From a virus, in the IMG/VR virus record IMGVR_UViG_3300034375_011295: a stretch of DNA of 34,865 nt; one strand, written 5' to 3'. The notes beneath the pieces are model-generated. The model searched no databases. It was not told where the DNA came from and saw only the letters and a program-made list of their open reading frames with translations. This document shows positions 752 through 23,786 of this stretch, one piece after another. Position 1 is the stretch's first letter, and every line of letters begins with the position of its first letter. Made by a program: the position numbers and the translations under genes.

Positions 752-780
752 AAAAGCCCTCAATCGAGGGCTTTATTTTA
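752..780. terminator. Bidirectional rho-independent terminator between convergent genes
   Basis: Stem agccctc (755-761), loop aatc, stem gagggct (766-772). A-run upstream and T-run downstream. Sits between the 132-731 (+) and 773-1291 (-) stops. Confidence 0.8.
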
Positions 781-1291
781 TATTTCCAATCAAATAACCT
801 AATCCAAAAGATCCAGTTCCAATTCCAATATCTACCCAAAATGAGTGATGATGTTTGTCGCAAGGAATATAAAGAATTTTTTGTTCAATTGGTATTTCAT
901 AAACAGATCTTCTCAAATAAATAGGGGAGAATACATCAGTAACTTTGTTAAATTCCAGATAAAGAGTGTCTTTTGACTTTGGAAAAATAGTGTCAAGAAT
1001 AGCAATTTGCTTGACTTTCAAGCTCTCTAATTTAGCATAAAGCCCTGAAATACTATCTACCAACAAATTTATTTTAGTACTATCCTCAAAATTTTCACTA
1101 ACAATTTTGGTAGTTGAGTGGTACTCGTGGATAGTGTCGTTTGGAACTATTATTGGCAATATTAAAGTGTCTATATCTTCAATATATTCCACACCAGTAG
1201 TCATTTTAGCATATTGATAGCCACCATAAGCAGACATCAAAAATACTATAATGATCAATGTTAAAAATCCTATGAGTGTGTTGAAGTTCAA
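773..1291 (-). CDS. Membrane protein, hypothetical (172 aa)
   Basis: N-terminal hydrophobic helix LIGFLTLIIIVFLMSAYGG and a hydrophobic Gly-rich C-terminus FWVDIGIGTGSFGLGYLIGNIK. Last gene of the minus-strand arm. Confidence 0.75.
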   Translation of the reverse strand: MNFNTLIGFLTLIIIVFLMSAYGGYQYAKMTTGVEYIEDIDTLILPIIVPNDTIHEYHSTTKIVSENFEDSTKINLLVDSISGLYAKLESLKVKQIAILDTIFPKSKDTLYLEFNKVTDVFSPIYLRRSVYEIPIEQKILYIPCDKHHHSFWVDIGIGTGSFGLGYLIGNIK

Positions 1292-1294
1292 TTT

Positions 1295-1876
1295 TTAACC
1301 TATAAATCTTCTACCAGTTGTCAAATCTTGCATATATTTTTTGCCCTTATTTTGTTCTCTTAATCTTTCCATTTTTTCTTTTTTACTTCCAAAAAGTATT
1401 TGATCTTTTTTCCACATAAAGTCATCAAATTTACCAAAATTTCGTCCTTTGCTATCGACTGCTTCTAAATAATAACCATTGCTATTTAACCAATTATAAA
1501 GTTTATCTTTACGATTAAGTCTTACAATAGTACTTCTTTCCTCTGGAGTTCTATCTGGAAGTTCATTTAATAATTTTTCAAAATTATTTTTATGCCAAAA
1601 TTGATTCACTATTTTTTGTAATGGATTTTTTACTCTTATGCTAACTTCTTCTTTTTCTAACTTTTTAATCCATTTTTTTGGTATTGGAGTAATATAATTT
1701 TCTTTAGCGTGTATTTTTAATTTTATCTTTCTTAACTTATCGCCATTTCCACGTACTCTTATTACTTTACTACTCAATCCAGTAGTTTTTTTCACTTTTG
1801 CTTGAGCTTTTTTACTTGTTGCCAGATAGACTGCTCCTCCAATTGCACCAAGTCCTAATAATGTTTTTGCATCCAT
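1295..1876 (-). CDS. Leader-bearing protein 1 (193 aa): shared N-terminal TM leader plus a basic domain of unknown function
   Basis: Residues 1-35 (MDAKTLLGLGAIGGAVYLATSKKAQAKVKKTTGLS) match the N-terminus of 11600-12124 in 32 of 35 positions and resemble that of 2478-3389. The remainder is unrelated to either. Confidence 0.8.
   Translation of the reverse strand: MDAKTLLGLGAIGGAVYLATSKKAQAKVKKTTGLSSKVIRVRGNGDKLRKIKLKIHAKENYITPIPKKWIKKLEKEEVSIRVKNPLQKIVNQFWHKNNFEKLLNELPDRTPEERSTIVRLNRKDKLYNWLNSNGYYLEAVDSKGRNFGKFDDFMWKKDQILFGSKKEKMERLREQNKGKKYMQDLTTGRRFIG
1772..1876 (-). repeat. Leader cassette copy 1 (codons 1-35)
   Basis: By my manual alignment, 92/105 nt match 12020-12124. Nine of the 13 differences are synonymous third-position changes. 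Confidence 0.85.
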
Positions 1877-1885
1877 AATTTTACC

Positions 1886-2476
1886 TTAAAATTTACCTTT
1901 TAAAAATTGATTCCAAACTAAATAACCACCAACCAAAGCAGTTGCAACCTTTACACCATTGCCAACACTTGCCAGATTGAAAGAGCCGATTGTTTTTTCT
2001 CCTCCCAGAGTTTCCACGTGGATAAAAGCATCAATTTGATCCAGACTTCTCCAGCCAAAATTTACAGAGTCGCCAAAATTTCCCTCAATCGTATTAATTT
2101 TACTGCCCTCGACGTAATTTGTAAAACCGACGTGTCCAGTGCCTTTTGTTCCACCTCTTTTTCCCCAATCAATAAAAAAAACTGCCCCTTGAGTAGCAAT
2201 TTTATTGACTGCAATATTAGATTTTTTTGCATTTGCTAAAAATAAGTGAGTTGATTTTGTTGCAGGTAAAGGATTTTGAACTGCGAAATCTTTACAAGTT
2301 TCATCAACAATCATTGACACAAATTCAGCACACCAAGGATCAGGAGTTGGCTCTCCACCAAAATATGACTTAATTTTATCAACACATTTGGATCTATTCG
2401 GAGTATTTTTATCCTCTTTACATCCATTCCATTGACTTGCATTATAAATTAATCTCTCTCCGAAAGTCGATGACAT
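1886..2476 (-). CDS. CHAP / NlpC-P60-like peptidoglycan hydrolase with a C-terminal membrane anchor (196 aa)
   Basis: Catalytic-type Cys in PWCAEFVS, His in GTGHVGF, then IEGNFGDSV, as in CHAP and TIGR02594-like cell-wall hydrolases. C-terminal helix VKVATALVGGYLVWNQFL is followed by KGKF. Confidence 0.65.
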   Translation of the reverse strand: MSSTFGERLIYNASQWNGCKEDKNTPNRSKCVDKIKSYFGGEPTPDPWCAEFVSMIVDETCKDFAVQNPLPATKSTHLFLANAKKSNIAVNKIATQGAVFFIDWGKRGGTKGTGHVGFTNYVEGSKINTIEGNFGDSVNFGWRSLDQIDAFIHVETLGGEKTIGSFNLASVGNGVKVATALVGGYLVWNQFLKGKF

Positions 2477-2477
2477 T

Positions 2478-3389
2478 TTAACCTCTTTTTTTCTTTTTCA
2501 ATTCGTTAGCAATCCATCTTTTTCCAATTGGATTTTGAACAGGTTTTTGGATAAACCTATCAATTGCTTTTTGTATTCTTGGATCAGCAGGACTATCAGA
2601 GCTACGATCCACAAGATAAAAATTAGCACCAAATAATTTTTTATATTTAGTAATATTTTTTTGTGCAGAATACCATTTTTCCTTAACTAATGAATCTGGC
2701 AAACTTCTGGATCTATTTCTATTCCTTTTTAAAGAAACTTCTAATGAAGTATTAACAAAAATCATTGCACAATCGTAACCTAATTTTTCAGCTAACATTT
2801 TTTTCTTTAACATTTTATCGTAATCATCTCCAGTACCATCCACAATCAGCCCTAATCTACCAGCTTCATAAGAACTTTGTTGCTTATTAGTTATCTTTTT
2901 AGCTCTACCACGTATTGAGTCCTCTCCAGCTCCAATTTTAGCCCACAAAATAGGATCTTCTTTTTCAATTTTTGCCAATTCTTTTGCATTGATATTGGCT
3001 TCAACTAATCCTCTTTCAAAAGCTAAATCAGAATTGACTATTTTCAATCCACTATGAACAAATGAATTTGATCTAACTCCTAATAATTCTTTTGCAGTAT
3101 AACTTTTTCCACTACCAGTTCCACCAGCCATAAAAACACATTTAAAAATACCTTTGTCATAAACTCCACTTAATCCATTACTCAAGCCACCAGTTTTGCA
3201 ATTATTTAATTTTTTTCCAGCACTCGAAGTCTGTTCAATCCTCAATTTTGATCCAGCAATACTGCATTGTTTTTTTCTTGAGATTTTTGTACTTTTTCTT
3301 GTTGTTTTTTTTGTTGTTGATTTTTTACTTGTAGCCAGATAGATTGCTCCACCGATAGCACCAATTCCTAATAATGTTTTTGCATCCAT
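2478..3389 (-). CDS. Leader-bearing protein 2 (303 aa): shared TM leader, basic linker and a P-loop kinase-like domain (zeta-toxin / polynucleotide-kinase-like)
   Basis: N-terminus MDAKTLLGIGAIGGAIYLATSKK. Walker A FMAGGTGSGKSY at aa 86-97. Walker B-like LIVDGTGDD. Arg-rich lid KRNRNRSRSLPD. Confidence 0.6.
   Translation of the reverse strand: MDAKTLLGIGAIGGAIYLATSKKSTTKKTTRKSTKISRKKQCSIAGSKLRIEQTSSAGKKLNNCKTGGLSNGLSGVYDKGIFKCVFMAGGTGSGKSYTAKELLGVRSNSFVHSGLKIVNSDLAFERGLVEANINAKELAKIEKEDPILWAKIGAGEDSIRGRAKKITNKQQSSYEAGRLGLIVDGTGDDYDKMLKKKMLAEKLGYDCAMIFVNTSLEVSLKRNRNRSRSLPDSLVKEKWYSAQKNITKYKKLFGANFYLVDRSSDSPADPRIQKAIDRFIQKPVQNPIGKRWIANELKKKKRG
3318..3389 (-). repeat. Leader cassette copy 2 (codons 1-24)
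   Basis: The nucleotide and peptide sequences match copies 1 and 3 through the TM helix and SKK, then diverge into a Lys/Thr-rich linker. Confidence 0.8.
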
Positions 3390-3393
3390 TTTC

Positions 3394-6036
3394 TTAATAC
3401 TCCAGTAATTTTCTTAATTTTTGAGAAAAAGTTAATTTCTTACTTGTCGCCACTTGTTTAGCACTTTTCAGATGATTAACAACTTTATTGCTCAATCCAC
3501 TTGTTTTTTTATAAGTTCTTTTTGGCTTATTTGCAAGTGTAAGTTGTACATTTTTGCTTTTATTTGAGAAGTAACCACTCATTTTCAGTAGTTCTCTCAT
3601 TTTTGCATTTGCTTTACTTTTATTTGTAAATTTATAGATTTTAGCTTGAGGATCAGAGTGTTTTCTGTTATAAGCCAACAATCTATTCATAGCAGTTTTT
3701 AAAAATGAAGTTGATCCATTGTTGAATTTTGATCCAGCTACATAATAATATTTACAATCTTTTCCAGTAAATCCGTGTATTTCATTCCCTTTCTTAATCA
3801 CATCACTATCAACAACACGAGTGCTTAATTTTATTCTATCAGATAAACCTCTATTTGCAACCAAAGTGCTTAAAATACTTTCTGGAGTAACTTCTTGATC
3901 ATAGCCAAACATCGAATCCCCTTGAGTGCTATTTCTGGCAGATACATAATAACTTTCTAAAATATCTCTAAATTTATTTACACCACTTTTTAATGACAAC
4001 CAAAGCATAGCCACCAAATTATCAGGCATTTCAGCATTTCCGAACATACTTTCTTGATTAAGGAACTCTTTAATTGATACCCCTTGCGTTCTTCTAATAT
4101 TTTCAAACTTGATAACATCTCTCAAATATGGTAACAAATCAAATTCTTTTGACAAAGTTTGGATTTTAGTCAGCACTGGAATAGCTTTTAAAATTCTATT
4201 TGTATAATCTTTAGCACCCTCGATCAATTCTTCGGATGGAAGAATTTTTGCAAGTAATAAATTTTCTAAATTATTTTTTCCAGCAGGAGTAAGATTTCCG
4301 TCATTTGTCAGCCAAATTGGACTATTTGAACTTGTAATAATTTCATTTTTTCGCAAGACATCAATCACAACTTTTTGATTTTTGTCTTTTGAAACAACTT
4401 GATTGAAAGTTTCATCATCCTCGCCCTCAAATATTTGAGCAATTTCCTCAAATCCTTTTTGGCTTAATGATTTTGCTAAACTTAAACTATTTGTATTTTG
4501 ATCTTTGGCTCTGGATAAAGTTTCATTTAAAATTCTGGAATACCAACTGCATCTATCCATTTCAGCATTAATCATTCTCACTAAAACTGGATATTTCATT
4601 TTTTTAAATTCGGTATTATCTGAAAATCCAAACATCTGGAGTCGTGGCTTTAAATAGTCAATATATTTGTCATAATTGTTCAAGAGCTTAACTCTTTTTA
4701 ACATCATTATACGACCATTACCACCTAAAACAACATTATCTTTTGAAACAACGGACGGACCAGTCATTGCTTCTGGACTATCATTTATAAAATGATATGG
4801 CTTGAAATTAGATGAATAACTTAATACCTTATCTTTTTCAGCCGATTTTTTGTAATCTCTTTCTTGACATTGTTTTGGATATTTAGGATTCCAGTCAAAA
4901 GTCCTTTCGTCGTGTGATTGGATCACATCATCAAGTTCCATAATTACATATTTACTTGGAATTTCTTGTGATGGAGTTTCCAGAATACCACTATTTCCAA
5001 CAATTACTTTCCCTTTCGGAGCAGATTTTTTTACTACTTTTTTTGGCTCTTGGTATTCAGCACTTTGCACCATTTCAATAAAATTATCAACTGGCAATCC
5101 ACCATCTTTGACAATATTTAATATTTTCAATGCACCAGATTTTAAAGTTTTAAATAAACTTAAATTTCTATTCTTTTTTGAATAGGCATAAGTAATTCCC
5201 TCTCTAAATGGTCCATTTGGATTATTCAAACCTCCAAATGCTAAATTACAAGACAGAACATTCTTATTATCTTGGCACAATCTATTTGCCATCGTCACAG
5301 AATATTCTAAAATTTTAAATTCTTTTGGTAGTTTGTCCGATCCATAACCTTTGGATGCTTTTTCATATTCAGAAAATGTAATTATCCCACTAACATCAAT
5401 TTTTCTTTCTTTTTCTTCACTTGCTTTTTTCTCCACTTTCTTTGGCTCTGGTGATGGCTTACGAATTTTAAGAATATATGTATTATAAAAATCTTCGTAA
5501 TTAAAATTTGAACGTACCCCAAAAGGATATTCATACTCCAATTCTTTAGCCACTTTAATAGCATCTTTCAAGTTTTTAAATTTAATGTTATGGCTTGGAA
5601 TAGTTTGATTATATTCTGTAATATTCAAAACATATTGACCATTCCCATAAGTGTCCTCATTCACTCTATATTTTTTACTTTCAAAATAAACATTACTCCC
5701 AGTGCCTAACTTTCTAATAGGTTTTATATTTGTAGATCTTTCTTTTCCCCCACTTGCTTTTTTTTCGACTTTTTTTGGCTCTGGAGCAGTCTTTTCTTTT
5801 TTTAGACTTGCAGGACGTTTTACCCTCGAAACTCTTTTTGTAGGACTTTTCTGTGCGTCGTTTTTTTGAGGAGTGGCAGATTTTTTGTCAAAATCAGCAA
5901 ATAAACGAGAAATATCCACTTCCAAGTCTTTGGCAATGGATAAAATCTCATTTTTTATTTCTTTAGCTTCATTTTCCGAAAGTTTATGAAGTTTTTTGTT
6001 GTAATCATTTACTAATTCTTCTAAAAAATCCACCAT
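3394..6036 (-). CDS. Large multidomain (polyvalent-type) protein with a ParB-superfamily (DdrB-ParB-like) core (880 aa)
   Basis: aa ~362-450 read VIMELDDVIQSHD..NPKYPKQCQERDYKKSAEKDKV...GPSVVSKDNVVLGGNGRIMML. This fits the xSHD / QxRD / GNGR pattern of ParB-fold domains in phage and plasmid polyvalent proteins. Lys-rich linkers PEPKKVEKKAS occur twice and QEPKKVVKKSAP once. The C-terminus carries KKTSGLS. Confidence 0.5.
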   Translation of the reverse strand: MVDFLEELVNDYNKKLHKLSENEAKEIKNEILSIAKDLEVDISRLFADFDKKSATPQKNDAQKSPTKRVSRVKRPASLKKEKTAPEPKKVEKKASGGKERSTNIKPIRKLGTGSNVYFESKKYRVNEDTYGNGQYVLNITEYNQTIPSHNIKFKNLKDAIKVAKELEYEYPFGVRSNFNYEDFYNTYILKIRKPSPEPKKVEKKASEEKERKIDVSGIITFSEYEKASKGYGSDKLPKEFKILEYSVTMANRLCQDNKNVLSCNLAFGGLNNPNGPFREGITYAYSKKNRNLSLFKTLKSGALKILNIVKDGGLPVDNFIEMVQSAEYQEPKKVVKKSAPKGKVIVGNSGILETPSQEIPSKYVIMELDDVIQSHDERTFDWNPKYPKQCQERDYKKSAEKDKVLSYSSNFKPYHFINDSPEAMTGPSVVSKDNVVLGGNGRIMMLKRVKLLNNYDKYIDYLKPRLQMFGFSDNTEFKKMKYPVLVRMINAEMDRCSWYSRILNETLSRAKDQNTNSLSLAKSLSQKGFEEIAQIFEGEDDETFNQVVSKDKNQKVVIDVLRKNEIITSSNSPIWLTNDGNLTPAGKNNLENLLLAKILPSEELIEGAKDYTNRILKAIPVLTKIQTLSKEFDLLPYLRDVIKFENIRRTQGVSIKEFLNQESMFGNAEMPDNLVAMLWLSLKSGVNKFRDILESYYVSARNSTQGDSMFGYDQEVTPESILSTLVANRGLSDRIKLSTRVVDSDVIKKGNEIHGFTGKDCKYYYVAGSKFNNGSTSFLKTAMNRLLAYNRKHSDPQAKIYKFTNKSKANAKMRELLKMSGYFSNKSKNVQLTLANKPKRTYKKTSGLSNKVVNHLKSAKQVATSKKLTFSQKLRKLLEY

Positions 6037-6039
6037 TTT

Positions 6040-6258
6040 TTATTTCCTTTTTAATCTTGCTTTTAATTTTCTTGCTCTCAATTTTGGAGAAGTGTTCCAC
6101 GCTTTTTTCATTGCAGAACTTCTTTGAGCTTTTGCACCTTTTTTTCTCCATCCACATTTTGAAAGTTGTTTGGCAGAATATGGATTACCAGTTTTAACTA
6201 AACTTCTACCAGCGACTTCGCAAACTGCCGACACTCTTTTTTTTCTTTTCTTTGGCAT
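6040..6258 (-). CDS. Highly basic small protein, putative DNA-binding/condensing (72 aa)
   Basis: About one third of residues are Lys/Arg (MPKKRKKR... KLRARKLKARLKRK) and Glu37 is the only acidic residue. AGGAGG RBS (ataggaggcaataATG). Confidence 0.55.
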   Translation of the reverse strand: MPKKRKKRVSAVCEVAGRSLVKTGNPYSAKQLSKCGWRKKGAKAQRSSAMKKAWNTSPKLRARKLKARLKRK

Positions 6259-6558: not shown

Positions 6559-7065
6559 TTACTTTCTATAATACCACCAAGTTCCAATTGCACCACCAAC
6601 GAGTAAAATCGCCAGAAGTGGATTGAAACTTGCCACTTGTGGAGATCTTTGTCTGTATGCTTTCTGAAATTTTGCCCAGTAATCCAATCCATCAGCATTT
6701 GGATTGTAATGTCCTTGATTATATGCAATTACTGACTTTTTCAAATCAAAGTTATATCTTTTGTATTGATGCAAAAAATACATAGTACCCAATTTTAAGT
6801 TATAAACTGGATTGTACATTTCATTAGTCGAGGCAGTTGGAAGTCTGAGCCACCTTTCAGCATCTTTTTTAGCTGGATCAGTCATTTGCATAAGACCCTT
6901 TGCCGAACTACGAGTATTTTTTGCCTTTGGATTGTAAGTTGATTCCACAAAGCAAATAGCAGTAACAATATCAGCAATTTTATAAGGATCAACCCAATTA
7001 TATTTATTTTGCTTCATCCAATTTGCAGTTTGGAGGGCTAAACTATGTACTTGTTTCTCTGTCAT
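6559..7065 (-). CDS. Lytic transglycosylase (SLT domain) with a C-terminal membrane anchor (168 aa)
   Basis: SLT motifs: catalytic E-S in FVESTYNP, GLMQMT, and AYNQG. C-terminal helix FNPLLAILLVGGAIGTWWYYRK. Confidence 0.8.
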   Translation of the reverse strand: MTEKQVHSLALQTANWMKQNKYNWVDPYKIADIVTAICFVESTYNPKAKNTRSSAKGLMQMTDPAKKDAERWLRLPTASTNEMYNPVYNLKLGTMYFLHQYKRYNFDLKKSVIAYNQGHYNPNADGLDYWAKFQKAYRQRSPQVASFNPLLAILLVGGAIGTWWYYRK

Positions 7066-7331
7066 TCGTCGTTATTTACACCTAATTTCAATTGAATTTT
7101 AATTAATAATTGCTCTATTTTGTCAAGTTTATCATCTACTTTTTTTAACTCATCTTTTTTTGAGATTATATCTTGTTTTATAAGTGCAATATCAGTTTTC
7201 ATTGCATTTATATCTGTTTCGGCTTTTGTTTTTCCTTGAATTAACCAAGTTCCAATTCCAAGAATTATGACTTGTAATATTCCAATTGCCCAAAAAAAAG
7301 CATCTTTTAATAAACTTGTTTGATCAGCCAT
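7062..7331 (-). CDS. Single-pass membrane protein with a coiled-coil tail, holin-like candidate (89 aa from the ATG at 7331)
   Basis: The track ORF extends to 7364 and overlaps the upstream gene. The internal ATG at 7331 gives MADQTSLLKDAFFWAIGILQVIILGIGTWLIQ plus a heptad-rich tail. Its stop overlaps the SLT gene start (ATGA). Confidence 0.45.
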   Translation of the reverse strand: MADQTSLLKDAFFWAIGILQVIILGIGTWLIQGKTKAETDINAMKTDIALIKQDIISKKDELKKVDDKLDKIEQLLIKIQLKLGVNNDE

Positions 7332-7338
7332 ATAGTTA

Positions 7339-7914
7339 TCATTCCTCAACATTAAAATCAGCAATATTTATAGAATTTAGTTCTTCTATTGTTGTTGAAT
7401 TATTTATTGCATTTCTTTTGTTAGAAAAAGCACTTTTCAAAGTAGCATAAACAGTTCCAAAACCTACTCCAAACTCTGCAAATTGTTGAGCTGTAAATTG
7501 CCTTTGATTATTAGAACTATCTGTTATATAATAATCTGTTATTGCACCACCTGAAATAGTGTTTAAACTAATCCAATCGCCTATATTACCTTTTGTGTTT
7601 TCATCTAAATTAAAAGTAAATAAATTATAAGTATAGCCTTCATCTAATTTACTTTGATAATTAGCTTGTAACTCGGATAATTTAGAGTTTTTTGCCTCTT
7701 TTAATTGCTTTTCTGTTAATACAGAATTATAGTCTATGCCTTCACCTGTTAATATCCAATTATTAGGAACAGACCCACCGATATTAGAAACCCAATTATT
7801 ATACCTTTCAACTTGTTCAGCAGTCAATTCGATATACCTAACACCTCTTTCATTTTCTGGTATTTGATTTATTGGTGTTGTTGTGTAAATATTTAATATA
7901 TTATCAAAAATCAT
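7339..7914 (-). CDS. Hypothetical protein adjacent to the fibre genes, possible fibre-assembly or accessory protein (191 aa)
   Basis: Position immediately downstream of the fibre-like genes. The function is a guess from context only. Confidence 0.6.
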   Translation of the reverse strand: MIFDNILNIYTTTPINQIPENERGVRYIELTAEQVERYNNWVSNIGGSVPNNWILTGEGIDYNSVLTEKQLKEAKNSKLSELQANYQSKLDEGYTYNLFTFNLDENTKGNIGDWISLNTISGGAITDYYITDSSNNQRQFTAQQFAEFGVGFGTVYATLKSAFSNKRNAINNSTTIEELNSINIADFNVEE

Positions 7915-8132
7915 AATATTTCCTCTGTAATTATTTCAAATGTAATCGGCTCACCTAATACTACTTCTACACCCTCATCATAAATAATGTAATAGAAGTT
8001 ATCTATTTGACTAAAGCTATAATTAACCCAATAAATAGAAGTTCCATTCGGCACTGGCAAACCTTTATAATCGGCACATTGTTGCCTTGCATTAATTGCC
8101 TCTTGTTCAGTTTGATATGTATATCCCAACAT
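7911..8132 (-). CDS. Hypothetical protein (73 aa)
   Basis: ORF translationally coupled to both neighbours by overlapping start and stop codons. Confidence 0.65.
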   Translation of the reverse strand: MLGYTYQTEQEAINARQQCADYKGLPVPNGTSIYWVNYSFSQIDNFYYIIYDEGVEVVLGEPITFEIITEEIL

Positions 8133-15804: not shown

Positions 15805-16455
15805 TTATCTTCTTTCTCTAATTTGAAGTGTTTTCAAATCAAAGATAACTCCATAACCTTTTGAAGACGATAGACCAGAATTTGGCCAAGTCATAAAGTT
15901 AGTAGTTCCAACTGCTTCTGTTGTAAATGTACCATTAACATTGAATTGGAATTGGAATGTAGTTCCAGCACCTAAAACAATTGGCTCTGGTAATTTATAA
16001 CCTTGATCAGCGTTTCTTCTTTCCACTTTAGTCCAAGCTGCTGCTTCGTCTGTTGCAGATGCTTCTACCACAGAATAAAAAGGTACTAAATTTGAAAGTG
16101 GCTCATTTAAGATTTCAGATCCTTCAACTTGTAATCTTACATAAGCATTTTCCAAGAAAGAAGCATAAGTTTGTCTTGCAGATGCTTCATCAGTTGAATC
16201 AGTAGTCGAGAATAACACATAAGGTTTAATGTTAATTCCTTGAATACTAAACGCTTGTGAGTTTGACGGAAATCCGGGTGTTTTATAAGCATCATTTTTA
16301 CTTGCAGAAGTAAATAATTGATTGCTTGGCTCAAAAGAAGCTCCACCATCCACAAAAATTGTATCTCTTACCGTCTTCGGTACTACGACATAGTTGTCGT
16401 CCATTTTTGGCGCTCCAACTGCTTGAAGTTGAAGTCTTTGTTGATCTATTGACAT
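15805..16455 (-). CDS. Major structural (capsid) protein candidate (216 aa)
   Basis: Beta-rich protein. The gene is followed by the strongest hairpin in the arm, a common signature of highly expressed capsid genes. Contains NSGLSSS. Function is inferred. Confidence 0.4.
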   Translation of the reverse strand: MSIDQQRLQLQAVGAPKMDDNYVVVPKTVRDTIFVDGGASFEPSNQLFTSASKNDAYKTPGFPSNSQAFSIQGINIKPYVLFSTTDSTDEASARQTYASFLENAYVRLQVEGSEILNEPLSNLVPFYSVVEASATDEAAAWTKVERRNADQGYKLPEPIVLGAGTTFQFQFNVNGTFTTEAVGTTNFMTWPNSGLSSSKGYGVIFDLKTLQIRERR

Positions 16456-16483: not shown

Positions 16484-17068
16484 TTAATTAAATCTTGAAT
16501 AAACATCTGTATCCATCCATTCCATTCCATCAGACATAGTTGGAGTTGTTTTAAATTGACTATTTTGTCTAAATTTTGAAAGATTACTTGCATAATCACT
16601 CATTCCAGCCGAATTATCACTTTGTACAGTTGTTGGGATCATAATACCTTGCTCGTTTGGAACTTGTACCACTTCTTGACCATCAGACATAGTCGGAGTA
16701 GCACTATAAATTCCATCTGCCAAAGAAGATGATCCAGCGATTGCAGGAAGAACTAATGGCTGATTCAATGAACTTGCCAAAGTTTTATTCCAGTAGTGTA
16801 AAATTTGCTCTCCACCAGCAAATGCTAATGTAGTTGTCCCAGCAGTTTTCCAACCTTTCCCATAGCAAACTGCCGAAACTAAAATTGCAGATGAAAGGGC
16901 AGGAATAGGACCAGATAAATCTACATTTTGACCAGCTTTGCTTAATCCATATTGAGTAATTCCAGCCAAGTTTTTACTTACCAGAACTGCCCCAATAGAT
17001 TGAGCAACTGTTTTTAATGTTGGACCTTTGAATATTTCAGATAGTCCGTTTGTCAATGCTTTTAACAT
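16484..17068 (-). CDS. Hydrophobic Gly/Ala/Ser-rich membrane protein with repeated TPTMSDG motifs (194 aa)
   Basis: Hydrophobic segments (SIGAVLVS, PALSSAILVSAVCYG, TTTLAFAGG). TPTMSDG occurs twice and GMSDY once. Two GLS sites. Confidence 0.7.
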   Translation of the reverse strand: MLKALTNGLSEIFKGPTLKTVAQSIGAVLVSKNLAGITQYGLSKAGQNVDLSGPIPALSSAILVSAVCYGKGWKTAGTTTLAFAGGEQILHYWNKTLASSLNQPLVLPAIAGSSSLADGIYSATPTMSDGQEVVQVPNEQGIMIPTTVQSDNSAGMSDYASNLSKFRQNSQFKTTPTMSDGMEWMDTDVYSRFN

Positions 17069-17085
17069 AAAAATCTCCTATTTCC

Positions 17086-17589
17086 TTATGAATATTGAGT
17101 ATAAACTGGAACTCCCATATTGTCATATCCAGTTATTGAGTAAAGTCTTCCGTTATTCTTGTTTTTATAAAGAACAGTTCCATTCGGTGTTCTCGAGTCT
17201 TGGATCATTTCACTTTGAGCAAATGAATCAGATAAACCACCAGATTTGTCTAATTGCATTTTCCCTAAATAACACAATCCACCTACAATTGCAGTTGTCA
17301 AAGGTCCAGTTTTGAAAATCATCCAAGAAGCTCCAGCACCAATTCCACCAATTAATAATGGATCAGCGTCATTGAATTTTCTCTTAACTTTCGTTACAAT
17401 TCCCTCTTTTTCCTTATCTACTTCTGGAACAACCTCTTTGATCTGTTCCTCTACTTTTTCAATTCCCTCGTCAATTTCTTTGTTTTTTTTGTTGATTAAA
17501 TCCCTGCCTTTGTCTAACCAGACATCAAGTATTCCACCATCAGAAAGCGAAATTGATTTTGGAATTGCACTTGTACCACTTACATACAT
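17086..17589 (-). CDS. Membrane protein, hypothetical (167 aa)
   Basis: Central helices LLIGGIGAGASWMIF and LTTAIVGGLCYLG, followed by SGGLSDS. Confidence 0.7.
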   Translation of the reverse strand: MYVSGTSAIPKSISLSDGGILDVWLDKGRDLINKKNKEIDEGIEKVEEQIKEVVPEVDKEKEGIVTKVKRKFNDADPLLIGGIGAGASWMIFKTGPLTTAIVGGLCYLGKMQLDKSGGLSDSFAQSEMIQDSRTPNGTVLYKNKNNGRLYSITGYDNMGVPVYTQYS

Positions 17590-17610: not shown

Positions 17611-19764
17611 TTAATACTCACAACAATTTCTTTCATACTCACATTCACAACAATAATTGCAATGATTTTCATAGCCCACATTATCATTGTTTTTTAAAAA
17701 ATTAATTTCCTCTCTTAATTCTTTTTCTCTTTGTTTTGCATCAGTCAAAGCCGATTTTAATTCATTTTCTCTTTCAGGACTAAAATTTTTAATCAGATCA
17801 TTTTCATATTTTAGATTTTCAGATCTTAATCTTTCAAGTTCCTCTGTCATAGATGAATTTTTATTATTTTGACTTCGCAAATCTTTAATTTCATTCTGCA
17901 AATTTTTATTTTTTTCTTGCAACTGACTTAATTCTCTAATAAAATTATCACAAGGTTCTGGCTCTTTTTGTGGCTCTACTGGAACACAATCAACAATAAA
18001 TCTCCAACCCTCGCCTAAATCAGCAATAAATTTATTTTCTGTTGTTTTTTTAGCTGGATAAGTTTTTCCTTTCCAGAAATAAACCAAGCCACCATTTTCA
18101 GATTTTTGAATACAACAAGGCAAATCATCAGTATTAACTTTCTCAATCGGTGGGGAAGTGTGAACACCCTCTGGACAAAGTATTGGTCTTGTTAGCCCAA
18201 CATTTTTAAAAATTTTACCATTTGCAAATTGGATATAATCTCCATCCACAATATAAGATCCACCAAAATCTTTTGCCATTGCGTTGTAATCAACATAATC
18301 TTCTGGTAAATAAATTGCTTGAGGGCAATTTTTATATTTTGCGTTGCAAAAAGCCAATTCGCCACAATCAAATTTTTTGCCAGTAACATCAATTTTATTT
18401 TTTGTCAAAGAACTTTTATTAACTTTTCTCAAATAATCAGTACCATTCAGCAATATAATTTCATAAACATTCCCATCTGGATCTGTGTAATAATCTTTAC
18501 CATCAACATAACTTTGCTTTAATTTTTGCCAAAGCCCAGACTTCATTGCATCAAATCTCCTTATCAAGTCATTTCCTTGAGAGCTACTGCTCCCAGAATT
18601 AGAAGACCCACCAGTACCAGAGGGATTTGAGGAGTTGCCTCCTGCACTACCTCCTTGAGTGCCACCACCAGTTGAGCTATTGCCACCAGTATTTGAATTG
18701 TTAGAACTTCCACCACCAGTATTTACATTATTTGTGATTTTTTCAATTTTGATTGGATAAATAACTATTTCAGTATTGATTTGGTCAATAGCATAAGTCT
18801 TATTATCCAGAGAATAATCAAACACTTGCATAATTGTAGCATTAGTACTGTTTTTTAACGGAGTAAAAAATCTGTCTTTTAACTCAATCCCATTTTCAGT
18901 TGTAATCTTATATTCTCCATCCCAAAGAGCATTTTTAAAAAAAAGAGTTTTTACATTTTTAATACCATTGTAAGATTGCATCTCTTTGATAAAATCTCCC
19001 AAGTTTGAAGTAGGAGTGCCTACTCGCATATAACTCATAACTTGTGGAGTAAATTTATAAATCAGTCCACCAAGTAAATTAGTCCATCTACCAGAATATG
19101 CCGATACATCATTGATATTTTTAACACCTGTTGGAATATTTAATCCTAATTTTGTACCGACACCAACACCGATTAAAGCAGTTGCAGGATCAACAATTAA
19201 TCCCATTTTCTTTGGCTCTAAAGTTGGAACTAAATTATAAATTGCATTATTTGAATAGCTTTTTATCCAATTTGAAATATTACCATTTGAAAAATCAACT
19301 GAATTTAATGTTGTTGATTTTGTTGTAAATCTTCCCCAAGTATCAAATATTTCAGCTCCATTACTTGCTTTTCTAAATCTAACATTAACATTTTTTAACT
19401 TGATTTTCCTTTCGGCAAAGAAAACACCACCAGTAAGAACATTTGAAAAGGCAAAATAAATTATGTCGTAAATAAAAGTATCTCTTGAACTGCCTTTTAC
19501 TACATTTATTGATGGAACTACTTTTATTGTCATAGTCCATTTGTCAAGAATTTTAGTTGTTTTGCTATCGTATTTATTTAAAAATTGAGTATTGATCCAT
19601 TTAGAGTTGTTTTTTCTGTCAAGAAAATAGCCACCAGTTGAAAATGGATAATTATTAGCATTATAGTAAGTGGATAAGCCCAAAGCATCCCACATACCAT
19701 TAATAAACTGATCAGATTGACCAGTAATTAATAAATTCCAATTTTCGTTTGGAGTGTTACCCAT
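17611..19764 (-). CDS. Large structural protein (717 aa): N-terminal globular half, G/S/N low-complexity linker, Cys-rich C-terminal half, coiled coil and a CC-rich tail
   Basis: Linker aa 345-398 (nt ~18571-18732). Coiled coil ~aa 608-693. The last 17 aa, HCNYCCECEYERNCCEY (nt 17614-17664), contain 6 Cys. Confidence 0.75.
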   Translation of the reverse strand: MGNTPNENWNLLITGQSDQFINGMWDALGLSTYYNANNYPFSTGGYFLDRKNNSKWINTQFLNKYDSKTTKILDKWTMTIKVVPSINVVKGSSRDTFIYDIIYFAFSNVLTGGVFFAERKIKLKNVNVRFRKASNGAEIFDTWGRFTTKSTTLNSVDFSNGNISNWIKSYSNNAIYNLVPTLEPKKMGLIVDPATALIGVGVGTKLGLNIPTGVKNINDVSAYSGRWTNLLGGLIYKFTPQVMSYMRVGTPTSNLGDFIKEMQSYNGIKNVKTLFFKNALWDGEYKITTENGIELKDRFFTPLKNSTNATIMQVFDYSLDNKTYAIDQINTEIVIYPIKIEKITNNVNTGGGSSNNSNTGGNSSTGGGTQGGSAGGNSSNPSGTGGSSNSGSSSSQGNDLIRRFDAMKSGLWQKLKQSYVDGKDYYTDPDGNVYEIILLNGTDYLRKVNKSSLTKNKIDVTGKKFDCGELAFCNAKYKNCPQAIYLPEDYVDYNAMAKDFGGSYIVDGDYIQFANGKIFKNVGLTRPILCPEGVHTSPPIEKVNTDDLPCCIQKSENGGLVYFWKGKTYPAKKTTENKFIADLGEGWRFIVDCVPVEPQKEPEPCDNFIRELSQLQEKNKNLQNEIKDLRSQNNKNSSMTEELERLRSENLKYENDLIKNFSPERENELKSALTDAKQREKELREEINFLKNNDNVGYENHCNYCCECEYERNCCEY

Positions 19765-20057
19765 TATTTATTCCATTCTTTTTGATAAGCAAAATATCCT
19801 AAAGTCGCTATGCCAAGCCCAATTAAATAAGGTGCATACTCTTTCAAATACGAACCTAATTCATATTTAGCTCCAGTTCCACAAACTCGAATAGTCGATT
19901 TTCCAACTGCCGAAAACATTGCATCTTCCAACGCATTAGTTTTACCCATTACCAGTTGAGAAGCCACTTTTTTTAAGTCAAGATTGCGTACTTCTTTGAA
20001 AACTTCCTCTTTTACAATTTGTTGAGTTAGTTTCGGCAAGTCTGAATATGATTCCAT
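19764..20057 (-). CDS. Tail-anchored small membrane protein (97 aa)
   Basis: C-terminal helix YAPYLIGLGIATLGYFAY followed by QKEWNK. Confidence 0.7.
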   Translation of the reverse strand: MESYSDLPKLTQQIVKEEVFKEVRNLDLKKVASQLVMGKTNALEDAMFSAVGKSTIRVCGTGAKYELGSYLKEYAPYLIGLGIATLGYFAYQKEWNK

Positions 20058-20060
20058 CTT

Positions 20061-20249: not shown

Positions 20250-20263
20250 TTTTCTACCTAATT

Positions 20264-21802
20264 TTAAAAAAGTTTATTTTTCTTTGCATACCATATACCT
20301 CCACCAACTGCTACTGCAATCCCCAGAGGCATCATTTTTCTTAAATTTGTGTCATAATCCCAATTATCTTGATAACCAATTACATCAGCACCAACTGACT
20401 TCTTAATTTCAATTGCAAATTTTTCTCTTTTGCCAATTGGAATTGTGTCTGGAAGAACAAAAGGAATTTTGTTACTGGCATATTTAGATGCTTGTTTTAT
20501 CAAAGCACTTAAAGTCATTTCATCAAAATTATCTTCTGGACCAACATAGCCAAATGATGAAGCTATTAATCCCACTAAATTATTTTGTGTCAATCTATTG
20601 TCAGATATTTCACGTTTTATTATTTCTGGAATTAGTTTATCTACTCCAATCACACCTTGCAAAATTGTTCCAGCACTTCCAGACTGAAATAAATTATTTA
20701 TTGCAGGAACTTGATAAACCGAAATGCTTTCTGAAAGTTCTGAAAGTAAATTTTCTCCTCCAGATCGCCCAGTCATTTTTCTTTTTAAGATTTCATTTGT
20801 ATAAGAACTAACCACACCAGAAAAAGTCTTATTTGCATTTGCTAAAGATCCATTGATTTTTCTTAAATCAACTACTTGATCAAATTTTCCAGAAGCAATA
20901 TTATTTAAGAACTTTATAGTTTCTGCTTTATCTACTCCAGTAATTGATGAAAATTGAGTTACTAAATTTCCAGCAAAATTTTGTTGGATCGACTCATAAC
21001 CAGTTTTTGCTTGATCAATATATTTTCCAAAAATCCAACCATCTTCCAACTTTCCAGTAATATCGTTTTTAATTTTACCCCACTTTGCAGTAGCTCCTTT
21101 CGTCCATTCAGGCAACAATATTTCAGAAGTCATTGCCAAAGATTTAAAAATATTATTGTTTTGAGCAGTTTTGTCGCCTTTTGACCAAATTTTTATTAAC
21201 GTTCCAGCTTGTTCGATAAACTTTGGATCAATATTCAAAGGTCCTGCAAAGGAACTCGCAATTGCTAAAGCATAGCCAAGCACATCTGTTAATGAATTTG
21301 CTTCCGAATAACTCCAATAAATAATTATTGGATTGTCGTGCTTTTCTCTATTATTTTCAATTTTTTCAAGAACTTCAAAGAAATTTTTATTATAATCTGG
21401 CTTTCTAAATTTCCAATTTCCAAAATATCCACCACTCACAACACCTTTATTAATCAATTTTGCCCTGTCTGTCCTTGTATTGTTGTTATTTCCCCAAATA
21501 TTTCTAATTGTTTGACCAACTTGAATAATAGGGCAGTTTGACCATAATTCTTTTGAGCTATTAAAACCTAACAATTCTCCTTTAAGCAAAGTTTTTGATT
21601 GTTTAGTATTTTCATCAGCAACTACAATTAAATTTCCAACTTTATCTTTAAACATTCCAAAACCAGTTGGGCTTTTTAAATTATCCGTTTTTTCATTATA
21701 AAAAAGAGCCGATCCATTTATCAAAGCCGAAGAATTTGCAGTCGTTATATCATAACAAACGTGCAATTCTTTTAAAGCCGACCAATGTTGAATGTTTTTC
21801 AT
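20264..21802 (-). CDS. Large tail-anchored protein, unknown function (512 aa)
   Basis: No P-loop or other recognisable motif. C-terminal helix MMPLGIAVAVGGGIWYA followed by KKNKLF. Confidence 0.75.
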   Translation of the reverse strand: MKNIQHWSALKELHVCYDITTANSSALINGSALFYNEKTDNLKSPTGFGMFKDKVGNLIVVADENTKQSKTLLKGELLGFNSSKELWSNCPIIQVGQTIRNIWGNNNNTRTDRAKLINKGVVSGGYFGNWKFRKPDYNKNFFEVLEKIENNREKHDNPIIIYWSYSEANSLTDVLGYALAIASSFAGPLNIDPKFIEQAGTLIKIWSKGDKTAQNNNIFKSLAMTSEILLPEWTKGATAKWGKIKNDITGKLEDGWIFGKYIDQAKTGYESIQQNFAGNLVTQFSSITGVDKAETIKFLNNIASGKFDQVVDLRKINGSLANANKTFSGVVSSYTNEILKRKMTGRSGGENLLSELSESISVYQVPAINNLFQSGSAGTILQGVIGVDKLIPEIIKREISDNRLTQNNLVGLIASSFGYVGPEDNFDEMTLSALIKQASKYASNKIPFVLPDTIPIGKREKFAIEIKKSVGADVIGYQDNWDYDTNLRKMMPLGIAVAVGGGIWYAKKNKLF

Positions 21803-21805
21803 TTT

Positions 21806-22639
21806 TTAATACCTTTCAGGGTACTTGTAAATTTTTTCTCCAGCAGTAATTGTTGAATATAATTGCTTATGACCTCGTCCATTTACTGCATCTGGCAAAG
21901 TGATTTTATCTTTTTCAAGAACTTCATCAACAACAACATTTTCATTTGGATTTTTTACACCTAATTGGTGCAATAATCTTTGAGTTACATCAATATTATT
22001 ACTTCCAGACTGACTATTTGAGTGTTGATTTCCAATATTTATATTAATTTCAGGCATACCTTTCCTTAATCCAGAGCATCTATTACAAGACCCTTTACAA
22101 GCACAAGGTTTATCTGACAAAGTTTTTAATTCTAATTCTGGCATTGGCGACCTATATAATTTTGTTCTATTTGCTTTTACTGTGTGATTAAAACCAGCAC
22201 TTTTCATTGTCGGATCTAAAACAATCCATCTACTTCCATCTTTTGCTTCCAAAACAATATGAGTAAATCTCAAATCTTTTGGATCTTTCCAAGAAATCAC
22301 TTTATATCTTGTCGTAATTCCATTAATTCTTAATAATGAAGAAATAAGTAAAACCATACTTTCACAATCTTCACAAGTTTTCTGCCCTGATATTAAGAGC
22401 CAAGGCGACGTAATATGCTCCATTCCTTTAGGATCATCACAAAAACTTACAGACTTCCAAACATAATCAAAGCACTTTTTAATTGTATCAGATCTTGAAC
22501 TGCCTCTCAACTCGTTAGCTTTTTTTTTTACTATTGGATTGTTTGTAGCCACTTGATCAATAGAATATATTTCTCTAATTATTTGATCAATCAATCCATC
22601 GTGATTTTTAGCAGTTATATTTCTTGATTTTGACTTCAT
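21806..22639 (-). CDS. Transglutaminase-like (papain-fold) cysteine protease superfamily protein (277 aa)
   Basis: Core KTCEDCESMVLLISSLLRINGITTRYKVISW ... FTHIVLEAKDGSRWIVLDPT matches the Cys / His / Asp order and spacing of transglutaminase-like domains. A Cys cluster (CACKGSCNRCSG) lies in the C-terminal third of the protein (aa ~179-190). Confidence 0.6.
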   Translation of the reverse strand: MKSKSRNITAKNHDGLIDQIIREIYSIDQVATNNPIVKKKANELRGSSRSDTIKKCFDYVWKSVSFCDDPKGMEHITSPWLLISGQKTCEDCESMVLLISSLLRINGITTRYKVISWKDPKDLRFTHIVLEAKDGSRWIVLDPTMKSAGFNHTVKANRTKLYRSPMPELELKTLSDKPCACKGSCNRCSGLRKGMPEININIGNQHSNSQSGSNNIDVTQRLLHQLGVKNPNENVVVDEVLEKDKITLPDAVNGRGHKQLYSTITAGEKIYKYPERY

Positions 22640-22845
22640 TATTTAGCAAGTTGATTATTCGGAGCAGTTACAGTCGTTGCAAATGTATAAAGCCCTCCAG
22701 TTGTTTGCATAATTCCTAAAACTGCCAACGTCTTCCACCAACCATTTTTTTTCCAATTCTTAATTCCATAATGAGAAGCAACACCACCAATTCCAGTAGC
22801 AACTGTTGAATAAGCAATTTTTTGATTTTTTGTTAATTCAGTCAT
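22639..22845 (-). CDS. Two-TM small membrane protein (68 aa)
   Basis: Helices AYSTVATGIGGVASHYGI and WWKTLAVLGIMQTTGGLYTFATTV. Confidence 0.65.
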   Translation of the reverse strand: MTELTKNQKIAYSTVATGIGGVASHYGIKNWKKNGWWKTLAVLGIMQTTGGLYTFATTVTAPNNQLAK

Positions 22846-22849
22846 TTTC

Positions 22850-23479
22850 TTAACCTTTTAAAATTTTCGCAGAAGTATTTATTTGAGTTAAGGCATAAAC
22901 TCCTAATCCTACAAATGCAGTAATTACTATTGCTTTTCCAGTCCAAGTTGGCAATCCAATTGCCGAAAATAAATTTGAATCTGGATCTTGACTTTTTGAA
23001 CTATTTTTGTATTCATCTGGAATAGAGTTGTTTTTTAAATACAATGAATTATTTGATGGTCTTAATATTCCGTCAAATTTTATAGTTCCATCTTTTGTAT
23101 AATAATACAATTGATCCAAAACTCTTTTTGTCAATTTTGGATTAAATCCACTTCCTTGACTTACTTTATCTACAACATTACTTTGTTGCTCTTTAGTCAA
23201 TTTGCTTAAATCATAAATAGGAATTTCTTTTTTTACTACTAAATTTCCATAAGTATTTACAATCGATGCTACTTCTCGCCAATCGATTGATCCAGATACC
23301 CAATTCCAGATCCCATCATTCCAATTTAAAGCAGTAACCAGATGAGCAATTGTTCTTTCGTAGTAAGAATTTGCAATTACTCCCCAAAAAAAAAGAGTTT
23401 GTTGCCAGAAATCTTGCTCCAAAGGAGGAACTACTTTGTCCGACAATCCCATTGAGATATTATTTGCATCTCTATACAT
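22850..23479 (-). CDS. Tail-anchored protein, unknown function (209 aa)
   Basis: SMGLSDK at aa 9-15. C-terminal helix AIVITAFVGLGVYALTQI. Confidence 0.7.
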   Translation of the reverse strand: MYRDANNISMGLSDKVVPPLEQDFWQQTLFFWGVIANSYYERTIAHLVTALNWNDGIWNWVSGSIDWREVASIVNTYGNLVVKKEIPIYDLSKLTKEQQSNVVDKVSQGSGFNPKLTKRVLDQLYYYTKDGTIKFDGILRPSNNSLYLKNNSIPDEYKNSSKSQDPDSNLFSAIGLPTWTGKAIVITAFVGLGVYALTQINTSAKILKG

Positions 23480-23670
23480 TATTTTCTTTTCTTTTTCATT
23501 TTCTTACCAGCTATAAAGCCACCAACACCAACACCAGCCAGTAATAACCAATTTTTCCAATCGCCACCAGCCATTGAATTTTGATTAAAAGTGCCTACAT
23601 TTGAGTTTGGAGTTGGACCTCCAGAAGTGCTACTTGCAGGAGCATCGGACATTCCACCACAACAAGACAT
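23479..23670 (-). CDS. Tail-anchored small protein (63 aa)
   Basis: N-terminus MSCCGGMSDAP. C-terminal helix WLLLAGVGVGGFIAG followed by KKMKKKRK. Confidence 0.65.
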   Translation of the reverse strand: MSCCGGMSDAPASSTSGGPTPNSNVGTFNQNSMAGGDWKNWLLLAGVGVGGFIAGKKMKKKRK

Positions 23671-23672
23671 AA

Positions 23673-23786
23673 CTATTTCCTTTTAAATTTTTTTAATATA
23701 TCTTTAGGTAATAATTTCCTTAATTGGTACTCCTCATTGCGTTTGCTTTTCAATAAAGGATCTTTGCCAATTTTTCTCATTGACAT
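23673..23786 (-). CDS. Small basic protein (37 aa), below the ORF-track cutoff; first gene of the minus-strand arm
   Basis: Hand translation gives MSMRKIGKDPLLKSKRNEEYQLRKLLPKDILKKFKRK. RBS AAGGA lies 5 nt upstream. Its stop is 2 nt before the next start. Confidence 0.45.
   Translation of the reverse strand: MSMRKIGKDPLLKSKRNEEYQLRKLLPKDILKKFKRK

Follow-up and report, generated by a model that had tools for sequence, protein, structure and literature searches.

A low-GC phage genome of 34.7 kb that is likely to be a distant relative of the membrane-containing phage SSIP-1

What kind of particle is encoded by a phage genome of about 35 kb in which no terminase, portal, HK97-type capsid, tail tube or DNA polymerase can be recognised? 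The question is raised by the IMG/VR virus record IMGVR_UViG_3300034375_011295, a stretch of 34,865 nucleotides that we analysed in full and refer to as the window. An original prediction, made from the letters and their open reading frames (ORFs), had described a virion gene arm rich in membrane anchors and had left two readings side by side, a large membrane-containing virus and a tailed phage too divergent to recognise. We consider it likely that a tailless icosahedral double-stranded DNA (dsDNA) phage, probably with an internal lipid membrane, has its complete genome in the window, and that this phage is a distant low-GC relative of the Salisaeta phage SSIP-1. SSIP-1 is tailless, has been found experimentally to contain a membrane, and has T=49 symmetry and a 44-kb circular genome (PMC6356626, PMC6260650), which according to a 2019 review shares hardly any similarity with GenBank sequences (PMC6356626). 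The earlier remark that bacterial examples of internal-membrane phages are mostly about 10-20 kb needs a correction, as the 44-kb SSIP-1 already exists.

Features shared with SSIP-1

We draw this conclusion because of the features that the window and SSIP-1 have in common, two of which are homologies between individual proteins. The transglutaminase-like protein of the virion arm matches the virion protein gp34 (phmmer E 3e-7, hhalign 93.9%, Pfam Transglut_core in both), and the alignment brings the catalytic Cys and Asp motifs together, with the His matching only approximately. When all window families were compared with all 57 SSIP-1 proteins by hmmsearch and hhalign, this pair was the only one found; the ATPase family was compared separately. 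The 226-aa ATPase and SSIP-1 gp40 both match Pfam AAA_25 and align by hhalign at 96.7% (E 4e-10, 185 columns), and the top PHROG of the window protein is phrog_6891 (E 8.7e-9), of which gp40 is a full-length member (E 2.6e-79). gp40 is annotated as a structural protein and has been cited as the predicted packaging ATPase of SSIP-1 (PMC4124505).

The likeness extends further. In both genomes, many late proteins bear terminal anchors that are rich in Gly and end in an aromatic residue, one very large polyvalent virion protein has a ParB domain, beta-rich structural proteins of ~200-260 aa are encoded in a cluster, and the circular genome measures tens of kilobases. In SSIP-1, 8 of the 25 late proteins have such an anchor (GGGIYAWNEMNK and GGGYLIAQSSK are two examples), and none of the 32 early ones does. 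The giant SSIP-1 virion protein gp43, with ParB_N and methyltransferase domains, parallels the 880-aa ddrB-ParB protein of the window and is analogous to it only. The beta-rich cluster includes a probable tandem jelly roll, gp47 in SSIP-1. The two virion-protein homologs, the shared Gly-rich anchors and the jelly-roll prediction described below together support the first of the two original readings, a large tailless virus with an internal membrane.

Membrane anchors were scored with our own hydropathy scripts. In a strict test (19-residue Hessa sum <=0), only 11275-11598, 7062-7364 and 773-1291 passed, and 22850-23479 and 6559-7065 were borderline (sum ~3.7); the rest of the proposed anchors proved to be uncharged, Gly-rich terminal stretches of 13-17 residues. 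The description of the virion arm as saturated with membrane anchors was overstated, since three to five segments meet strict criteria; what stands is a set of 10 terminal Gly-rich anchors. Uncharged Gly-rich runs at a terminus were present in 10 of 35 arm proteins and in 1 of 22 others, more than expected by chance, and a lenient test for a hydrophobic 15-mer was passed by 16 of 35 and 3 of 22, respectively. Such a run typically has 13-21 residues, usually with an aromatic residue at its end, and is followed by basic or polar residues. The runs are kept in near relatives, and that of the SLT protein is absent in distant ones. Some individual calls also had to be revised: 22639-22845, 16484-17068 and 17086-17589, listed as small polytopic proteins, are not clearly polytopic; 7062-7364, in the same list, has a single helix; the supposed N-terminal anchor of the CHAP protein 10685-11278 is signal-peptide-like in all lineages; and the C-terminal tail anchor of 1886-2476 shrinks to a run of only ~12 residues.

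The probable packaging ATPase and the predicted jelly-roll proteins

How would such a virus package its DNA? To our knowledge, the packaging ATPase of all characterised jelly-roll viruses is of the FtsK-HerA type. No FtsK-HerA (A32-like) packaging ATPase, the hallmark of Bamfordvirae and Helvetiavirae, was found in the window, because its ATPase is RecA/RadA/KaiC-like and there is no other P-loop ORF for the role. The best PDB match of this protein is RadA (E 0.012), NCBIfam assigns it a RadA/Sms ATPase domain (E 2.8e-7), and its sequence contains the motifs LYLNIEE and VVIDSVS. We regard it as the likely packaging enzyme, because it is homologous to gp40 and because, in all relatives whose sequence spans the region, its gene closes the virion arm; in L007 and L013-L015 the gene directly continues that arm. 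The original prediction had called the P-loop correctly and had treated the protein as a bystander, a role that fits poorly given the gp40 homology. Two loci taken up as distant relatives of the ATPase (L016 and L017) proved to be 450-aa RadA/DnaB-type genes in unrelated contexts and were rejected.

The ATPase might instead be a recombination or replication accessory (RadA/Sak4-like or a helicase loader), with packaging carried out by an unrecognised factor or without a virus-encoded motor. Its best matches (RadA/Sms, KaiC and AAA_25), together with weak PHROG matches to UvsX-like and Sak4-like families, are what this alternative would lead one to expect. The window gene also sits beside the replication arm with unannotated proteins of 113 aa (HPD motif), 87 aa and 55 aa (Cys pair), and FLiP and the Odin group are jelly-roll viruses without a packaging ATPase (PMC5894146). 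The genomes of such ATPase-less viruses are, however, far below 35 kb, the gene is colinear with the virion arm in the relatives just mentioned, and its product is the sole P-loop protein conserved with the structural module. With gp40 annotated as virion structural and regarded as a packaging ATPase, we judge an accessory role to be unlikely, while giving it some weight.

The candidate capsomer is a 371-aa tandem jelly-roll protein. Its halves (residues 1-150 and 151-371) are homologous to each other (BLAST E 5e-5, hhalign 97.6%), and with a deeper alignment the hhalign match rises to 99.4% (E 7e-22, 138 columns). An AlphaFold2 (AF2) model built from 11 sequences, with a predicted local distance difference test (pLDDT) score of 84.5 and a predicted TM-score (pTM) of 0.85, has about eight strands in each half and a helix behind the fifth strand, according to its DSSP string. 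In our own reading of that string, the two helices would correspond to those after strands F and F', which are typical of double jelly-roll (DJR) capsid proteins (PMC8812541). The top 30 PDB neighbours of the model in Foldseek are mostly DJR proteins and include PHM, a chain of the STIV virion (3j31), PBCV-1, PM2 P2, FLiP, PR772, vaccinia D13, the orf virus scaffold protein and phiCjT23; PHM, like PNGase F, has a DJR fold (PMC8812541). In BFVD, the model matches the STIV coat protein (E 5e-5, probability 0.99) and a 256-aa entry, I1ZBI0 (E 2e-6, probability 1.0).

The second jelly roll contains a beta-barrel insert of ~68 aa (VGDTITGGTSSATG...) at residues ~283-345. More than 1,600 representative proteins carry this domain, most of them fibre-like and otherwise unrelated, and large ones often have 2-13 copies of it. 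In one lineage, the tandem protein lacks the insert and measures 286 aa.

I1ZBI0 is probably SSIP-1 gp47, judging by its length, which only gp47 fits, and by the accession series. gp47 itself (SSIP-1 is our locus L009, gene at 36043-36813) has a weak internal repeat (residues 64-113 against 194-234, 32% identity, pairwise E 0.002) and may be a tandem jelly-roll protein too. Just upstream of gp47 lie gp45 and gp46, clear paralogs of ~210 aa. The genes on either side of the 371-aa gene encode proteins of 216 and 213 aa, whose families are unrelated to the 371-aa halves in hhalign comparisons.

These neighbours allow for a differently built shell, of the SSIP-1/sphaerolipovirus type, in which the role of major capsid protein (MCP) would fall to the 216-aa protein and perhaps also to that of 213 aa, each a single vertical jelly roll, and the 371-aa protein would be a vertex, turret or decoration protein. 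SSIP-1 is reported to have two MCP types (PMC6356626, PMC4958249), and it has the gp45/gp46 pair upstream of gp47. The 216-aa family is colinear with gp45/46 over 136 columns, but the hhalign probability is only 4%. The 216-aa AF2 model has the SH1 virion chain a of 6qt9 as its best Foldseek match (E 8e-3), with PNGase F and P23-77 VP16/17 also listed; since its pLDDT is 54, these fold matches are unreliable. While the promiscuous insert of the 371-aa protein, found in fibre-like proteins, would suit a decoration protein, the insert-less 286-aa versions are about as large as PM2 P2, a minimal DJR capsid protein, and the STIV coat is a significant neighbour of the model. Such a shell therefore appears rather improbable to us, and we prefer the 371-aa protein as capsomer.

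Several points weigh against the conclusion that the window encodes a tailless, membrane-containing relative of SSIP-1. In the PDB, the 371-aa model has no Foldseek match at <=1e-3, its TM-scores are only ~0.2-0.35 throughout, and through its inserted domain it also matches tail-fibre and baseplate proteins. Because the TM-scores are low, we call the predicted fold DJR-like rather than that of a proven DJR capsid protein with canonical geometry. The ATPase is RecA/RadA-like, not of FtsK-HerA or A32 type, and could be a recombination protein. Likeness of the capsid proteins to those of SSIP-1 is undetectable by sequence (no match to gp45, gp46 or gp47), and an exact-sequence look-up gave no UniProt accession identifying I1ZBI0 as gp47, a link made from length and accession numbers. 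Most of the anchors fail strict transmembrane (TM) criteria, and some are missing in the distant relatives L007 and L008. The internal membrane itself is a prediction from the genes.

Gene content, relatives and cargo

Could the window be a tailed phage after all? A six-frame scan for Walker A motifs returned exactly three proteins, the same as those named earlier: DnaB, the kinase-like protein 2478-3389 and the ATPase. None of them has the size or architecture of a large terminase (TerL), which combines a P-loop ATPase with a nuclease. No large ORF matched TerL, portal, HK97 capsid, tail tube or DNA polymerase in PHROGs, Pfam, NCBIfam or PDB sequences, which upholds what had been noticed by eye, and profile searches for tail sheath and tape measure brought up just fibre-type repeats and weak coiled-coil noise. 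No portal or HK97 MCP was found by profile or PDB-sequence search among the arm ORFs, including 20264-21802, whose 512-aa product had been named as a possible portal and has no match anywhere. Profile searches of PDB sequences with the 216-, 371-, 213-, 512- and 717-aa families gave nothing meaningful, and three fibre-like proteins of the receptor module have profile matches.

The tailed reading thus fared poorly. Fibre-type repeats and a DUF4376 domain in the 7339-10698 module, polyvalent, CHAP and SLT proteins of kinds common in tailed phages, and an insert that is widespread in tailed-phage fibre-like proteins would all be in keeping with a member of Caudoviricetes whose terminase, portal, capsid and tail genes lie beyond the reach of profile methods. 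We nevertheless think it very unlikely, given the absence of any Walker A ORF able to be TerL, the lack of portal, HK97 and tail tube matches in four libraries, the positive homology to a tailless phage, and the fact that the one core protein with a confident structure model (371 aa) is an all-beta jelly roll and not HK97. Slightly less likely still is a non-viral mobile element, be it a satellite using a helper capsid or, with its membrane proteins and cell-wall hydrolases, an element of the conjugative type, which could account for the many small membrane proteins, the SLT, ParB-type polyvalent and Zeta-like kinase proteins and the integrase in relatives, but not for the holin-endolysin cassette and fibre module, the homology to SSIP-1 virion proteins, the fragment of the same virus in IMG/VR or a conserved 20-kb structural-type arm that is excessive for a satellite, and for which VirB4, VirD4 and relaxase have no candidate P-loop ORF, because the window holds just three P-loops, and no Pfam match.

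Table 1. Features of the window, in order of position
Feature	Position	Strand	Remarks
Terminal direct repeat	1-127 = 34739-34865		100% identity
172-aa protein	773-1291	-	strong N-terminal TM helix; last gene before the ATPase gene in relatives
Leader-cargo paralog 2	1295-1876	-	same leader as paralog 1, other cargo
Second CHAP peptidoglycan hydrolase	1886-2476	-	
Leader-cargo paralog 1	2478-3389	-	leader MDAKTLLGIGAIGGAIYLATSKK, GLS motifs, Zeta-toxin/AAA_33 kinase-like cargo
880-aa polyvalent-type protein	3394-6036	-	ddrB-ParB domain; GLS motifs at residues 730 and 847
72-aa extremely basic protein	6040-6258	-	mostly Lys, Arg, Ala, Ser; candidate DNA-condensing core protein, from its sequence
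SLT lytic transglycosylase	6559-7065	-	C-terminal anchor in the near clade only
Variable receptor-binding module	7339-10698	-	353-aa tail-fibre-type repeats, 502-aa 'virion structural protein', 73-aa protein, 191-aa DUF4376 protein
Lysis cassette	10685-11598	-	107-aa holin-like protein (2-3 TM helices), then CHAP endolysin; in all lineages
Leader-cargo paralog 3	11600-12124	-	same leader as paralog 1, other cargo
268-aa coiled-coil protein	12699-13505	-	two GLSD motifs; candidate scaffold or assembly factor
213-aa beta-rich protein	13530-14171	-	candidate second capsid/penton; always directly 3' of the tandem jelly-roll gene
371-aa tandem jelly-roll (DJR-like) protein	14161-15276	-	candidate capsomer (half homology, AF2 model, Foldseek)
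216-aa beta-rich protein	15805-16455	-	candidate single-jelly-roll capsid/penton; always directly 5' of the tandem jelly-roll gene
167- and 194-aa proteins	16484-17589	-	conserved, Gly/Ala-rich, moderately hydrophobic; G[LM]SD motifs
717-aa conserved protein	17611-19764	-	Gly/Ser-rich linker, coiled coil, Cys-rich C-terminus; possibly vertex or spike
97-aa protein	19764-20057	-	conserved C-terminal anchor ending YFAYQKEW
512-aa conserved virion-arm protein	20264-21802	-	C-terminal Gly-rich anchor; no portal signal
Transglutaminase-like (papain-fold) protein	21806-22639	-	SSIP-1 virion protein gp34 homolog; candidate maturation protease or cross-linker
209-aa protein	22850-23479	-	C-terminal hydrophobic anchor kept in relatives; GLSD at residue 11
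63-aa protein	23479-23670	-	C-terminal Gly-rich anchor, then KKMKKKRK; GMSD at residue 6
226-aa RecA/RadA-type (AAA_25) ATPase	33510-34190	-	SSIP-1 gp40 homolog; colinear with the virion arm in relatives

The window is one complete circular or terminally redundant unit of 34,738 bp, because its ends overlap exactly over 127 nt; the original prediction of a complete genome of ~34.7 kb was correct, and our own ORF check returned the ORFs at the same coordinates. No tRNA genes were found in the window. A long virion arm runs on the minus strand from 24159 to 773, a replication and regulation arm with a helix-turn-helix (HTH) protein, a Lin1244_N-type initiator and DnaB runs on the plus strand from 24638 to ~32782, and a short minus-strand block runs from 34190 to 32789. 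The close relatives L013-L015 lack the two plus-strand ORFs that separate the 172-aa gene from the ATPase gene in the window; there, both genes lie on one strand, with the 172-aa gene first and a spacer of ~240 nt before the ATPase gene. The region 34191-34738 plus 1-751 thus looks like an insertion of ~1.06 kb with two moron-like genes. Because L013-L015 place the ATPase right after the 172-aa gene, we take the block 34190-32789 to be the tail end of the virion arm, split off by the insertion. The two ORFs concerned, 34495-34824 and 132-731, each stand behind an identical 35-nt sequence (100-134 = 34463-34497).

A scan of the window for promoters and terminators gave no more than shuffle level, and Shine-Dalgarno sequences, present at about half of the genes, are not decisive as to the host. 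An AT-rich intergenic sequence of 72 nt occurs twice, at 27875-27946 and 34389-34460 (71% identity), each time 5' of a plus-strand transcription unit, and may be a common promoter or regulatory region.

By all the counts we obtained, the family is very rare. The 216-aa protein falls into 7 clusters among 5.8 billion proteins, and the full-length 371-aa family makes up ~five clusters at 50% identity among 1.84 billion. GenBank phages yielded no match to 25 kb of the window by megablast, nor to the 216-aa protein by tblastn. An IMG/VR scan with the 216-aa protein was negative, and IMG/VR scans with the ATPase returned only a 5.6-kb fragment of the same virus. No species genome matched the 216-aa family in one scan, and a second gave one contig among 185,579 species genomes (L008), from a Chlorobiota metagenome-assembled genome (MAG). 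The exact proteins of the virus recur on 17-23 metagenomic contigs.

Gene order is identical in all relatives found: the transglutaminase-like protein, the 512- and 717-aa proteins, two small Gly/Ala-rich proteins, the 216-like protein, the tandem jelly roll and the 213-like protein are followed by an SLT and/or coiled-coil protein, a ~100-aa protein, the holin-like protein and CHAP. In L008 (3211-7014) and L012 (2513-6271), a single protein of ~1,250-1,267 aa is an apparent fusion of the 512- and 717-aa proteins, and in L008 it ends in a Cys-rich C-terminus similar to that of the 717-aa protein (CNQCNNECSDCDCGECY against CNYCCECEYERNCCEY). An integrase together with an HTH protein in L001 and L002 marks some members as temperate. 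Three segments of the window (23673-24159, 22639-22845 and 15316-15696) are 95-98% identical to L001 and/or L002 and their neighbouring genes only 60-80%, which indicates recent mosaic exchange within the lineage.

The N-termini of three paralogous proteins (1772-1876, 3285-3389 and 12020-12124) share MDAKTLLGLGAIGGAVYLATSKK, a basic linker and TTGLS, and then continue into differing cargo. Relatives join the same leader to further cargos, including DUF7222, Phage_TreK and others of no known kind, and the shared leader suggests a virion- or membrane-targeting signal for swappable effectors. The 880-aa polyvalent gene contains repeated coding segments (D4, D8) at 5026-5806, which give PEPKKVEKKAS-type repeats in its N-terminal part; the L013 version retains 345 residues at the start and 50 at the end, with the part between them replaced.

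Arm proteins contain the motif G-[LM]-S-[DEGN] at 14 sites, compared with 1.1 +/- 1.0 in shuffles (~13-fold), and the motif is absent from the other 3,311 residues. Besides the residues given in Table 1, its sites include residue 118 of 17086-17589 and residues 159 and 204 of the 268-aa protein. It is equally enriched in L001 and L005, with conserved positions, less so in L007, and not enriched in L008 and SSIP-1. The sites lie just behind the leaders, near N- and C-termini and between domains of the polyvalent protein, and because of this placement we put forward, as a hypothesis only, that G-L/M-S-D/N sites are maturation cleavage sites. A link between the motif and the transglutaminase-like enzyme is weakened, because SSIP-1 has the enzyme and the motif is not enriched there.

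On the reading of a tailless, SSIP-1-related phage, one long late transcription unit, running from 24159 to 773 and across the junction from 34190 to 32789 in the gene order observed, would encode the virion. The shell would be built from jelly-roll proteins of the three always-adjacent genes (216, 371 and 213 aa), of which the 371-aa protein has a predicted fold, and if this protein is the capsomer, its inserted beta-barrel would stand out as a tower. About ten small or enzymatic proteins could enter the virion membrane through short Gly-rich terminal anchors, as the SSIP-1 signature suggests, and the ATPase, homologous to gp40, would pump DNA in. Effector cargo (the ddrB-ParB polyvalent protein, the Zeta-like kinase and other leader-borne domains) might be loaded into the particle and might be freed by cutting at G-L/M-S-D/N, conceivably by the transglutaminase-like cysteine enzyme; we hold both steps with low confidence. 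Entry would use virion-borne SLT and CHAP hydrolases and the variable fibre/spike module, and exit the holin-like protein and the CHAP endolysin.

Comparison with known systems

Through the window, SSIP-1, an orphan since 2012, is tied to a second, low-GC lineage that has temperate members and recurs in environmental metagenomes, with one distant member on a contig binned in a Chlorobiota MAG. Four features of SSIP-1 can now be seen as conserved: its RecA-type virion ATPase, its transglutaminase-like virion protein, its Gly-rich anchors and its jelly-roll gene cluster. Should the ATPase prove to be the packaging motor, not every jelly-roll membrane virus relies on an FtsK-HerA enzyme. Should the 371-aa protein prove to be the capsomer, it would be a double jelly roll whose duplication can be detected by sequence, which would bear directly on the open debate over two proposed origins of DJR capsid proteins, from single jelly rolls of viruses by fusion or from DJR proteins of cells (PMC8812541). 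Testable predictions also follow from the leader-cargo proteins and the enriched motif, namely on how internal-membrane phages load and mature the contents of their virions.

More tentatively, the window, its metagenomic relatives and SSIP-1 might form a separate deep lineage of icosahedral membrane phages outside Bamfordvirae and Helvetiavirae. Its capsomer would be a tandem jelly roll with halves still homologous in sequence, from a fusion independent of, or much younger than, that of classical DJR proteins; DNA of ~35-44 kb would be packaged by a RecA/RadA-type ATPase and not by an FtsK-HerA motor; and leader-tagged effector cargo would be loaded and matured at G-L/M-S-D/N sites. Taken jointly, these proposals seem to us possible, with the balance tilting against them.

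With the DJR membrane viruses (PRD1, PM2 and STIV; Bamfordvirae), the window has in common a tailless design, small membrane proteins and an anchored SLT lytic transglycosylase that we take to be analogous to PRD1 P7. Also in common is a predicted protein of two jelly rolls, each half bearing a helix behind strand F, with capsid proteins of STIV, PM2, FLiP and PR772 among its nearest structural neighbours. It differs from them in its RecA/RadA-type ATPase, which takes the place of an FtsK-HerA/A32 enzyme, in the low TM-scores to true DJR capsid proteins, and in a genome two to three times the size of those of PM2 and PRD1. Sequence similarity between the two jelly rolls, described as lost in viral DJR capsid proteins (PMC8812541), is still clear in the 371-aa protein.

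The vertical single-jelly-roll viruses (P23-77, SH1 and HHIV-2; Sphaerolipoviridae and allies) resemble the window in having several adjacent small beta-rich capsid-type genes, genomes of up to ~30 kb and an internal membrane, which is inferred for the window, and the best structural match of the 216-aa model, a weak one, is the SH1 virion chain. Unlike these viruses, the window has no FtsK-HerA ATPase gene beside its capsid genes, shows no sequence or confident structural match to them, and encodes a fused tandem jelly roll.

Within its likeness to SSIP-1, profile-level relation is limited to two proteins, and the capsid proteins are unrelated by sequence. With ~30% GC and 35 kb, the window is both lower in GC and smaller than SSIP-1 (57%, 44 kb). 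A single 216-aa gene stands where SSIP-1 has the gp45/gp46 pair, gp34 is tail-anchored whereas its window homolog is not, and the G-L/M-S-D/N motif and the N-terminal leader-cargo system of the window are absent from SSIP-1.

Adenovirus-type maturation, in which several core and cement proteins are cut by a protease at a short consensus containing Gly, offers an analogy only. The window differs from it in motif (G-L/M-S-D/N) and in enzyme family (transglutaminase-like), and cleavage would be hypothetical here. The window nevertheless has an analogous combination: many of its virion proteins contain a short recurring motif, frequently close to a terminus or a domain border, its structural module encodes a papain-like cysteine enzyme, and it has a small, very basic core-like protein.

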